From: Octopus sinensis
Lineage: Eukaryota
DNA length: 64,000 nt
Assembly (NCBI RefSeq): GCF_006345805.1
Contig: NC_043005.1
Span: 54,126,001 to 54,190,000, forward strand
Reading direction: 5' to 3'
In this document: positions 12,885-16,208 of the stretch, piece by piece
How the letters are laid out: each line of letters opens with the position of its first letter
Numbering within the stretch: position 1 is the stretch's first letter
Notes under the pieces: model-generated
The model's input: the letters and a program-made list of their open reading frames with translations, nothing else
The model's database searches: none
Told to the model about the DNA's origin: nothing
Position numbers and translations under genes: made by a program

Positions 12885-13992
12885 TATCAGGTTGAGTAAA
12901 AAGTAAGTAACGCTTTGAACCAAGAAGAATTTGTACCAGATTTGTTTGCAGAGTTTTGAATTTTTAAAACATTTTTTTGCAATTTTCTGATAATACAGAC
13001 ATAGACTTGCCCAAATGCATCAATAAAGTAACATTGGTATTTTTTTCACCGTTGTAATAATCATCTGAAATAGAACAGTCAAAACGCGATATTTGAACAA
13101 TTTTGCTATTCAAAAAAAGGTCGTAAAGCAGCTGAAACTGCTCGCGATATCAACGAAACGTTTAGTGAGGAAATGACCAGTAAGAGGTCAACTCGAAAAT
13201 GATTTAAACGATTTTACAGGGGAGTCCTGAGCCTTGAAGATCGTGAGAGTAGTGGACGTCCATCTGTTATCAATGACGGTCAATTAAAGACCGTCATTGA
13301 GAAAGATTCACGTAAAACCACTCGATAACTGGCAAAAAAACTTCAAATTAGCCAGAAAACTGCGTGTAACCATTTGGATGCGATCGGAAAATCAAAAAAG
13401 CTTGACAAATGTGTACCACACAATTTGAATTAAAATTAGAAAATGTGCAGATATGAAATTTGGTCGTCGTTTCTTCTTCGCAATCAGACCGATCTATTTC
13501 TCGACCATACTGTAACTTGCGAGGAAAAGTGGATTCTGTACAATAATAAAAAACGTTCTTCTCAGTGGCTGTACCAAAATGAAGCACCGAAAACTTTCTC
13601 TAAATCCGAGCTCTTCAAAAAGAAGGTTATGGTAATTGTTTGGTGGTATACTGCTGGACTCATCCCCTATAACTTCTTAAAACTCGGACAAAACATTATG
13701 GCAGAAACATTGCCATGAAATTGCCAAAATGAACGAAAACCTGCTACTCCTCCGTCCTAGACTGATCAACAGAAGAGGGTCAATCATTCTTCATGACAAT
13801 GCTCGACTACCCGTTTCCCTACCAACGCTCCAGAAGTTGAGGAAACTTGGCTACGAAGTTCTTCTCCAACCAGTTTATTCCTCAGACCTTTCTCTTTTTC
13901 AAGCACCTTGTTCAAAAATCAAACCGATGCCCAAAGTGCGTTCAAAGAGTTCGTCAGCTTCAGAACTCCAGATTTTGATGTTACCGGAATAA
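12885..13992 (+). mobile_element. Mariner (Hsmar1/SETMAR-like) transposon, pseudogenised, 3' end truncated by the downstream insertion
   Basis: TA-TCAGGTTGAGTAAAAAG 5' end; decayed motifs CVPH (WVPH), TCEEKWILYNN, ILHDNAR, YSSDLS (YSPDLAP); multiple stops and frameshifts. Confidence 0.9.
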
Positions 13993-14213
13993 GCGTCGAT
14001 GCCTCCTAGGGCTAAACAGCGGTGGTGTAATTCCCTTACGGGGCTGTCACGTTATGTTGACAGTATACAACCACTCTATCGCTCCACCACCGCTCATGTC
14101 TCTTTGAGACATTTAGAAATTTAATATTTCTAATTACGGTGACCAGTGAATAGATTTCACTGTAAATATATATATTTGCGAAGGCTAGACAGGCATCTCA
14201 ACCAGCAGGTCTC

Positions 14214-15886
14214 GCTACTTGGAAGTGTTTGTGTCGGTTTTTCGATTTTGCGGTGTGAGTTGGATTTTGCTGATTATTGTTGTTGAAAACTGTTGCGTCG
14301 TGTTGAACGTTATAATTGTTGAATTCTTTGTTGTGTATGCAAGCCCAAACTTATGCGGGTGCAGCAGGCAAAGGCCTGGCTGCGAACGAATTACAGTTGG
14401 AAGAAATAATTGTCGAAAAGGAAAATTTGAGGAAATACTACGACAGCTTCAAGAAGGAAGGTGACTGTCTGAGGGTTACACCACCTGAAGACGAAGTGAA
14501 AGAAGCGGAGAAAAAATCATAACATACAGAACATGGAATGTGGTCTCAAAGAGAATAGAAGTAGCAGAGGTGAAAGAGATTGAAAAATGTCTACAGGAAA
14601 TTAAAGGAAGAACTACTTTCTACAATAGAGGTAGAAAATACGCTACGGTAGACGTTCGTTTTGAAAATGAAGACGAAGCGAAGAGGAACGCAACGACAGT
14701 GCTTAGATCGGAAAAATGGGTTATTGTGGAAAAAGAGCAGTGAGGATACGAATAAGCAAAATCCCACCGGAACTTGATACCGAAAGAATAGTAGCTGCAA
14801 TAATCTACAACTGCAAAGAGAGCGTGGACATACTTAAGGTGGAAAAGTCGAAAGAAATAAACTGGTGGGGTTATGCGGTGCAGGCTTCGGTCCACATAAC
14901 CATGCCAGATTTGTATAACATCACGGAGGAGTTGGTGTTCCCCGACGAGACACGACTGAGAGTCGTGGTGGAGGGGAGACCTCCAGTGTGTTATAAATGT
15001 AAGAGCAGAGGGCACATGAAGGATGTGTGTCCTCAAAGAGAATTACAAGAGGAGACGGTAGCACTGGAGGAAGGAATGGAGGCTTTGACAGAGGAGTTAG
15101 AAAAGGAGAATATGGAATTGCAAGCGGAAGAGGAAATCGTGACAACAGATAATGTGGAAAGTGGCGACGAGTTAGTGAAGGAGAAAGAAAAGGAAAGAAC
15201 AGAAGAAAAAGAGGATAGAAAGCGAACACGGGTGGAACAACCACCCAAAGACCAAAAGAGAAAAAAACTAAAAAGAAGTCTGCCGATGATACAGAGGATC
15301 GAACGCACGAAGGGAGAGATACAGCAACTAAAGTGAGTGAAGGTTCAACGTGGTATGAAACGGAAAAATGGTCAACAAAAGTGGAAGAATGTCTGAAAAC
15401 ATGCAAGGAAGGAGGAAGACCAAAAGGAAGAAATCTCAAAGCGGTAATGTTGTACAAAAAGGATAAAGAAATTGAGAAAAAATTAGCGATAATGAAAAAT
15501 CTAACAAGAGTGAAATTGAACCCGAAGATATACGATAACCAAATAAAGGCTGCAATTGTGGATAAAGAGACGGTATATAAATTAATAAATTTGTTTTCAA
15601 ATACAACTGTGTGCATAGCGCACTACGTTCGATATGACAGTTTGCTCGGCGTTATAGAACAGGATGAATTACTCGTTTACATTACTGACGAACACCCCAG
15701 ATAGTAAAACTGTACTTGTAAATGAAACTGCGAGCTTTGGGGGGCTCGTAAGCCATTTCATTTAATTCATTATTTATATTTCATTTCATATCATCCCTTC
15801 TGTATTTTTGTTATATGTACCCCATGTCCTGTATTGTATTGTTATGTTCCCTCTTTATTCGGGCCATTGTGCCTATAATAAAGATA
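14214..15886 (+). mobile_element. ORF1/gag-only non-LTR-type retroelement with 17-bp flanking duplication
   Basis: CTCAACCAGCAGGTCTC at 14197-14213 and 15887-15903; a single gene, pyrimidine-rich 3' UTR, AATAAA at 15877-15882; no RT or endonuclease sequence. Confidence 0.75.
14337..15704 (+). CDS. LINE ORF1/gag-like nucleic-acid-binding protein (L1/Tx1-like; CCHC knuckle, acidic coiled-coil-like tract), three frameshifts
   Basis: ORF pieces 14337-14522, 14540-14743, 14716-15336 and 15219-15704; VVVEGRPPVCYKCKSRGHMKDVC is C-x2-C-x4-H-x4-C; each junction is a -1 shift at an A-run, with no other internal stops. Confidence 0.75.
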
Positions 15887-15908
15887 CTCAACCAGCAGGT
15901 CTCACTAT

Positions 15909-15955
15909 CCTGGGCTGATGACGGGTTAAAACCCAGAAACATGCATGTCCTCAGG
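15909..15955 (+). ncRNA. Type I minimal hammerhead ribozyme
   Basis: Stem I CCTGGG/CTCAGG, core CTGATGA, stem II GGGT-TAAA-ACCC (flanking C/A mismatch), GAAAC, palindromic stem III ACATGCATGT, GUC cleavage predicted after 15949. Confidence 0.85.
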
Positions 15956-16116
15956 TGTAAATCCTAGCTGGTGGGGGTGCTTGCCTCCCCTTCGCAAATA
16001 TAAGGACACAGGAAATGTGTCAAAGCCGACAGGAAGCGTCGATGCCTCCTAGGGCTAAACAGCGGTGTTGTAATTCCCTTACGAGACTGTCACGTTATGT
16101 CGACAGTATACAACCA

Positions 16117-16208
<92 letters not shown>

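Follow-up and report, generated by a model that had tools for sequence, protein, structure and literature searches.

Does a hammerhead-bearing repeat that encloses a protein-coding segment represent one mobile element or two? The question is raised by positions 13991–16117 of a 64,000-nucleotide stretch of the Octopus sinensis genome (assembly GCF_006345805.1, contig NC_043005.1, forward-strand positions 54,126,001 to 54,190,000; hereafter the window, in which the parts of the hammerhead unit and its cassette placed below lie on the plus strand). A preliminary description of this DNA offered two readings, namely a target-specific retroelement that encodes only an ORF1-type protein and inserts into retrozyme-like units, or a self-cleaving unit of about 2 kb that has acquired a protein gene. 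Our analysis favors the former. The nesting of the coding cassette in a hammerhead unit is solid, and we consider it likely that the cassette is an ORF1-only derivative of a long interspersed nuclear element (LINE) inserted in a separate hammerhead repeat, which would be mobilized by an L1/Tx1-type partner that probably chooses RNA polymerase II (Pol II) start sites by position.

A coding cassette nested in a hammerhead repeat

The architecture initially proposed for the locus was confirmed in its main elements. Direct repeats of 84 bp (13991–14074 and 16034–16117, 4 mismatches) are spaced by 2043 bp, an exact 17-bp duplication (14197–14213 and 15887–15903) has a spacing of 1690 bp, and a type I hammerhead occupies positions 15909–15955. 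Removal of the cassette leaves a 353-nt unit, and natural empty units display the predicted junction. A search with positions 15887–16117 yielded 2297 candidates, of which 40 were scored and 30 loci (given L numbers here, as are all other fetched loci) were retrieved (L041–L043 correspond to one place, and L057 and L058 are near-identical). The proposed count of empty and filled sites could thus be made: among these 30 best unit loci, 20 are empty, 7 are filled and 3 fall into neither class.

The host unit is 353–354 nt long, non-coding and carries a type I hammerhead, consistent with the 170–400-nt size range of retrozymes. Its copies are truncated at variable points on the 5′ side and terminate at one of two fixed 3′ ends located approximately 60 nt apart, mostly followed by microsatellite or AT-rich sequence, and pieces in both orientations are found in 16 of 29 unit loci. 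Most copies are partial tandems; L041 contains two hammerheads in tandem, with two cleavage-site motifs 354 nt apart. The unit hence spreads by itself, as judged from its partial tandems, inverted 5′ pieces and adjoining microsatellites. Partial tandems, inverted 5′ copies, an optional tail and a bias toward microsatellites are insertion features known for Penelope-like elements (PLEs) (PMC8557442; here and below, published systems are described from the accessible parts of the cited sources). Because the overlap and the 5′ truncation point vary among copies, the 84-bp repeat is the overlap of a partial tandem, and its interpretation as a long terminal repeat (LTR) was rejected. The left repeat (13991–14074) is accordingly the 5′ overlap, and is followed by the upstream part of the unit (14075–14199), a predicted small nuclear RNA (snRNA)-type promoter region that is 98–100% shared with empty copies. 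Within the latter, positions 14171–14184 form an inverted match to 15989–16002, and the two segments may pair around the ribozyme domain in the RNA of an empty unit. The 3′ part of the unit (15956–16118), which includes the right 84-bp repeat (16034–16117), ends at one of the two fixed 3′ ends against the (CT)n tract that constitutes the right flank. On the left, the unit is inserted into the end of a decayed mariner/Tc1 transposase gene (13040–13990; PF01359).

The hammerhead at 15909–15955 was borne out by its CTGATGA and GAAA cores, stems I and II, and a palindromic stem III; it is predicted to act as a dimer and to cleave at 15949/15950, that is, at +60 of the empty unit. The minimum free energy structure of the monomer is misfolded, whereas a two-molecule fold produces the canonical dimeric hammerhead (−34.9 versus −11.8 kcal/mol per monomer). 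Stems I–III covary between unit families, in a census filtered for pairing; stems I and II change in compensating fashion, and stem III remains a palindrome while its sequence varies. Rfam searches, in both gathering and E-value modes, did not detect the hammerhead. Dimer-type hammerhead motifs have been described previously (PMC4209133, PMC7229834).

The cassette encodes a conserved ORF1-type protein

The existence of a separate gene cassette was upheld, with boundaries corrected to 14221–15884 and with the open reading frame (ORF) of the window copy found to be broken into four frame segments. The element ends in AATAAAGA (15877–15884), and both of its ends are fixed across copies. From its sequence, we classify it as an ORF1-only, HAL1/HeT-A-like derivative of an L1/Tx1-type LINE. 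It is bracketed by a target-site duplication (TSD), the left copy of which (14197–14213) covers approximately +1 to +14 of the unit plus 3 nt of microhomology and is repeated exactly on the right (15887–15903). Between the left TSD and the element lies a short 5′ leader remnant (14214–14220), likely derived from a donor unit of another subfamily, longer unit-matching versions of which are present in L013, L015, L016, L023 and L028. Cassettes of approximately 1.66 kb with the same ends are found in this unit, in unit families only ~50% alike, with their own TSD in each, or beside other cassettes; in two places, three distinct ORF1-only families follow one another with copies of a single TSD between them.

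The broken ORF1 (14337–15704) is 69–81% identical to the naturally intact 460-aa ORF of L016 and encodes two predicted RNA recognition motif (RRM)-like domains, a CCHC knuckle (matched as zf-CCHC), an acidic/basic linker and a C-terminal alpha/beta domain. Its relationship to LINEs is evident from the similarity to the ORF1 of the partner LINE described below (26% identity over 327 aa, E 8e-41) and from the 3′ end, where cassette and autonomous LINE share AATAAAGA and a similar upstream TGT..ATGTCC tract. The fetched loci contain 32 distinct intact ORFs, two of which are LINE ORF1s with ORF2 directly after them; 29 of the other 30 reach the 3′ end within 153–350 nt without an ORF2, and one had too little flanking sequence. 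The ratio of nonsynonymous to synonymous substitution rates is 0.07–0.16 in 11 of 24 ORF pairs, the other 13 being saturated, and the intact relatives of the cassette ORF are under purifying selection. In the phylogenetic tree, the ORF1-only proteins group with one O. bimaculoides protein (99/97) and are separate from the autonomous ORF1s (100/100), which makes the ORF1-only lineage appear old; named homologs come from Octopus and Argonauta.

Modeling of the ORF product from a single sequence gave a predicted local distance difference test (pLDDT) score of 38.5, compared with 62.6 from a 16-row alignment. Foldseek searches with the model returned no match at E<=0.001, only weak tandem-RRM rows, and the best hits of a VIA search (Z up to 7.4) were RRM-like domains. 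The ORF1-only proteins carry an extra C-terminal domain of ~110 aa without a match in the two partner ORF1s tested. This domain, predicted with confidence in L016 (2800–3162; pLDDT 79–89) and shared by ORF1-only families, has no Pfam or Atlas match and was barely covered in the fold searches. As a lead only, the N-terminal region matches CCHC and ZCCHC3-RBD clusters at 0.88–0.92. The 5′ untranslated region contains a 5′ splice-site-like GTGAGT (14255–14260), and a similar motif is found 40–70 nt into several other families; our guess is that it might recruit U1 snRNP and prevent snRNA-type termination. Fragments of integrase-like ORFs of LTR elements were noticed near or within stacked cassettes (L063:2807–3604 and L064:4138–4623).

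Autonomous LINEs share the 3′ end and the insertion site of the cassette

The first sign of a candidate partner was a LINE fragment beside the cassette of L066; it has the AATAAAGA end as well as a zf-RVT domain. Full-length LINEs of this kind are about 5.3–5.5 kb long, encode ORF1 and an apurinic endonuclease–reverse transcriptase (APE-RT) protein, are up to ~99% identical to each other and are flanked by 14–18-bp TSDs; some contain an intact 1134-aa ORF2. They have an ORF1 with CCHC, and their relatives carry PF03372, PF00078 and PF13966 domains, an architecture which we take to be of L1/Tx1 type. Sister LINE families at 79–84% identity have the same 3′ end. In both the LINEs and the 1.7-kb ORF1-only families, the AATAAAGA end is followed by a linker of 3–4 nt, and the elements are in sense orientation to the target. 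Of 20 LINE 3′ ends, a hammerhead unit comes next in 16, the 5′ end of another element in three and U2 in one; in a partly overlapping set of 30 young LINE 3′ ends (of 42 exact matches), 20 abut a unit start, nine are stacked and one lies at U2 +1.

The reading of the cassette as a target-specific ORF1-only retroelement is therefore supported by the dominance of empty units, its own TSDs in other unit families, stacking, and the autonomous LINE at the same site. These LINEs also occupy U1, U2 and TATA sites, so that they do not require the hammerhead, whose presence is incidental to them.

Insertion at predicted Pol II start sites

The expectation that insertion always takes place at CTCAACCAGCAGGTCTC did not hold. 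Instead, the target is a position that matches the predicted start site and is common to hammerhead units, U1, U2 and TATA promoters; it appears to be defined by position rather than sequence, and the predicted targeting of start sites is well supported by the placement of the insertions. ATCAGT, the proximal sequence element (PSE)-like motif, is located at −57 to −61 in all 14 U1 and all 19 U2 upstream regions (the LINE-occupied U2 excluded). A U6-type promoter was considered for the unit and rejected, ATCAGT being present upstream of none of 14 U6 matches, some of which are probably pseudogenes. In the window, PSE-like ACCAGT (14142–14147) precedes by 58 bp the predicted +1 of both the unit and the inserted element (14200), the latter deduced from how far it lies from the PSE and from the register in which LINE tails are found at +1 of U1 and U2. 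All eight listed unit targets have ATCAGT or a variant 53–61 bp before the ATC or TSD, and the U2 target has the PSE-like motif at −59; by chance, the motif would be expected in 0.5% of cases in a 9-nt window.

The TSDs, 14–18 bp in length, start near +1 of units and U2 (~57–61 bp after ATCAGT) or ~30 bp after TATA. The LINE inserted in a U2 gene has a TSD spanning approximately −3 to +11 and an extra leader from unit family C, and another LINE carries U1 nucleotides 1–17 as its 5′ leader; more generally, the leaders of some copies correspond to the first 14–17 nt of a previous host, either U1 or another unit. Unit C and U2 are both hosts to one LINE family; a second family is found in unit D and at U1, the latter at 92% identity. 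A targeted pattern search uncovered one LINE directly before U1 +1, behind a U1-like promoter (66% identity over 252 nt, E 5e-10).

Unrelated TSD sequences are found in a sister ORF1-only family and in sister LINEs. Among 15 resolved non-PSE targets, with repeated copies of one promoter counted once, TATAWA starts at −31 to −28 in seven (p 3e-5 against genomic sequence and 2e-6 against local flanks, for a motif and window that were set post hoc), with no other TATAWA between −114 and +1. All resolved promoter insertions are sense-oriented. The test excluded L249, L257, L024, L297, L301, L302, L306, L308, L310, L319, L323, L325, L327 and L333, which showed no clear adjacent 5′ duplication.

Several targets deserve mention in their own right. 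In L296 (6730–8600, minus-strand numbering), an ORF1-only element occupies the beginning of a presumed host gene that has a GC-box promoter, an exon and a GT donor. L253, L262, L300, L305 and L311 contain a non-coding-looking repeat of ~1.2 kb with E2F-like, CCAAT and TATA motifs and short internal tandem repeats, which is a frequent target and occurs in inverted copies. In L321 (1888 and 7210), a sister LINE is found 30 bp after TATTTAAA, and the target sequence matches the 3′ flank of a GIY-YIG element (L188), likely a Penelope pseudo-LTR (pLTR). Finally, L329:7352–7490 is a sequence between two inverted U2 genes which has been struck by a LINE with a U1 leader and has no Rfam match.

Proposed mechanism and alternative explanations

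The following scheme would account for these observations. The hammerhead unit would be copied by a PLE, transcribed from approximately position 14200 and cut at +60 by its dimeric hammerhead. The LINEs and their ORF1-only derivatives, presumably devoid of their own promoters, would be transcribed from a captured one starting at +1, which would explain why elements carry the first 14–17 nt of the previous host. Partner ORF2p would initiate reverse transcription at a fixed position immediately beyond AATAAAGA, and targeting may occur via tethering to the Pol II initiation or early-elongation complex, or by cutting of DNA opened by it; ORF1p as the tether is a guess. Tethering has precedents in Ty3, DGLT-A and Tf1 (PMC6101501). 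Regeneration of the target site would allow new copies to stack, and filled transcripts may sometimes be copied whole by the machinery of the unit.

A number of observations weigh against this scheme. Start sites, transcription and cleavage are all predicted from sequence, and sampling covered the top-scoring copies. The exact partner family of the window cassette was not found in the searches made, nor was an autonomous PLE with this pLTR among 30 GIY-YIG loci, one of which has the unit nearby as a separate insertion. The insertion at U1 lacks a TSD. In addition to the post hoc choice of motif and window and the exclusion of loci with an unresolved TSD, the TATA test left 8 of 15 non-PSE targets without a strict TATAWA, namely a GC-rich target, two with variant TATA boxes, one whose variant is weak, and four in which no promoter is apparent (L307, L320, L329 and L335, two of which are 5′-truncated copies). 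The GAAA-tail subfamily of the window cassette starts its TSD 65–67 bp from the PSE, at about +8 to +10, in three resolved loci; 8 of its 16 loci are without a resolved TSD and one more lacks a PSE distance. Furthermore, template switching has been put forward as the origin of the U1/U2 heads of Tx1 elements (PMC4494074).

The last point belongs to an explanation modeled on Tx1L, Keno and Tx1-Mar (PMC4494074), whereby the endonuclease of each family reads a short sequence in its host repeat, the coincidence with start sites results secondarily from selection for transcribed copies, and the leaders arise by template switching. In its favor, families prefer particular units, ATC is common to several unit starts and U2, master copies are possible only at promoters, and template switching has been published for U1/U2 heads (PMC4494074). 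However, selection on masters does not position their daughter copies; the leaders match the TSD in length and begin at +1; one ORF1-only family has unrelated TSDs at TATA and GC promoters; and single LINE families occupy unit C and U2 or unit D and U1. We therefore regard sequence-specific recognition as unlikely. A general preference for accessible, nucleosome-free or transcribed DNA, rather than base-pair positioning by the initiation machinery, could be invoked given the targets without a promoter motif and the one subfamily shifted by ~8–10 bp, yet it would hardly produce TATA starts confined to −31 to −28 with no other match from −114 to +1, exclusively sense insertions at resolved promoters, or a PSE distance of mostly 57–61 bp, and we give it very little credence.

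The remaining question is whether the 2043-nt filled unit is a replicon of its own, either a self-cleaving circle or a PLE with an acquired gag-like ORF (cf. Chlamys-2_cBra). A PLE with a 3′ hammerhead and a zf-CCHC ORF is known (PMC8557442), the pairs L022/L030, L023/L028 and L002/L018 are congruent, and some copies span both components: L035, L041 and L055 contain inverted or truncated copies extending over cassette and unit, and L264 has a truncated cassette with a unit downstream and none upstream. These configurations indicate that filled RNA is sometimes copied whole. Yet the identities of cassette and downstream unit are uncorrelated (rho −0.03 over 24 loci, two of which have another element downstream), and the closest relative of the window cassette (95%) resides in a 66%-identical unit; independent insertion is therefore the main route. 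Moreover, the cassette occurs without the unit and stacks, its ORF is a homolog of LINE ORF1, the window copy has a single hammerhead, and locus-specific TSDs and incongruence are already the pattern. Accordingly, the ~2-kb self-cleaving coding unit of the preliminary description is largely rejected, with the copying of a few filled RNAs as what survives of it, and we consider an independent replicon improbable. A protein-coding viroid-like circle and an LTR element were likewise discarded, given the uncorrelated identities and the variable overlap length.

Returning to insertion by position, we lean toward a broader proposal. In it, a lineage of octopod LINEs would insert at +1 of Pol II promoters of any class (PSE, TATA or GC-box), precise to almost the base pair; it would have lost a promoter of its own and given rise to ORF1-only parasites. 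Its principal refuge, and at times its vehicle, would be the Penelope-like hammerhead units with their snRNA-type promoters. Besides this three-layer parasite system, such a rule could account for the U1/U2 heads and the dissimilar target sites of crocodilian Tx1-Mar/SINEU elements.

Other features of the window

The window further contains a degenerate U6 copy, likely a pseudogene (24400–24505), a tandem duplication with a period of ~1151 bp (~5830–8140), and two long near-perfect inverted repeats with arms of 255–260 nt (25477–26030 and 54377–54934). Among the fetched loci, L136–L140 form a tandem array of divergent U6 genes spaced by 1.1–2.5 kb.

Relation to known systems and implications

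Taken singly, the layers each have precedent, in retrozymes and PLE hammerheads, the snRNA-type promoter of newt satellite 2, ORF1-only LINEs and repeat-targeting Tx1 elements. HeT-A stacks head to tail, as do the cassettes described here. Like HAL1, HeT-A and Ag-Sponge (PMC5786205), the cassette codes for nothing but an ORF1/gag-like protein, terminates in a LINE-type 3′ end and relies on a reverse transcriptase supplied by an autonomous element, but it differs by its L1/Tx1-type partner, the extra C-terminal domain and insertion at predicted start sites. Tx1L, Keno and Tx1-Mar/SINEU (PMC4494074, PMC4640811) are similarly APE-RT LINEs found in other repeats or snRNA genes, in tandem and with TSDs. 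The U2 flank of Keno, however, starts at nucleotide 39 (PMC4640811), whereas here it starts at +1, with a TSD of approximately −3 to +11. More generally, what the targets here have in common, unlike those described for Tx1-clade LINEs, is their placement with respect to promoter motifs (PSE, TATA or GC-box) rather than a sequence. Tx1-Mar elements have U1/U2 heads and two dissimilar sites, and transcription from a flanking promoter has been proposed for SINEU (PMC4494074), which in the accessible literature is the closest hint of start-site targeting.

The hammerhead unit resembles non-LTR retrozymes and PLE pLTR hammerheads (PMC7229834, PMC4209133, PMC8557442, bioRxiv 10.64898/2026.07.22.740005) in its 170–400-nt type I unit, palindromic helix III, partial-tandem and inverted insertions, and microsatellite flanks; it differs in being mostly present as 1.2–1.5-mers, in its PSE-like promoter and in being parasitized by LINEs. 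With newt satellite 2 it shares the combination of a hammerhead repeat and an internal snRNA-type Pol II promoter (cited in PMC2220036), the unit here being from a mollusc genome and its promoter deduced from motif and position. The data suggest that a mollusc hammerhead repeat may use an snRNA-type promoter, as does newt satellite 2.

The data also give a reason for an element without a reverse transcriptase to keep its ORF1 under selection. Integration set by position has been documented chiefly at Pol III genes. Ty3, DGLT-A and TRE5/TRE3 at Pol III genes and Tf1 at Pol II promoter regions likewise have their sites set by the distance from the transcription machinery (PMC6101501), but the elements described here are non-LTR retrotransposons, use snRNA- and mRNA-type Pol II promoters, insert inside the transcribed strand at about +1 and appear to capture the promoter. 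Target-specific LINEs are generally explained by sequence recognition by the endonuclease (PMC4494074), and the literature consulted, the coverage of which was incomplete, described neither LINEs positioned where Pol II transcription starts nor LINEs within hammerhead units. If the proposal is correct, recognition of Pol II start sites by a LINE would represent a new targeting mode and would provide a testable explanation for the snRNA heads of Tx1/SINEU elements. The insertion sites would then mark promoters active in the germ line, and the element would be a mutagen aimed at gene starts, with one likely host-gene promoter already struck.

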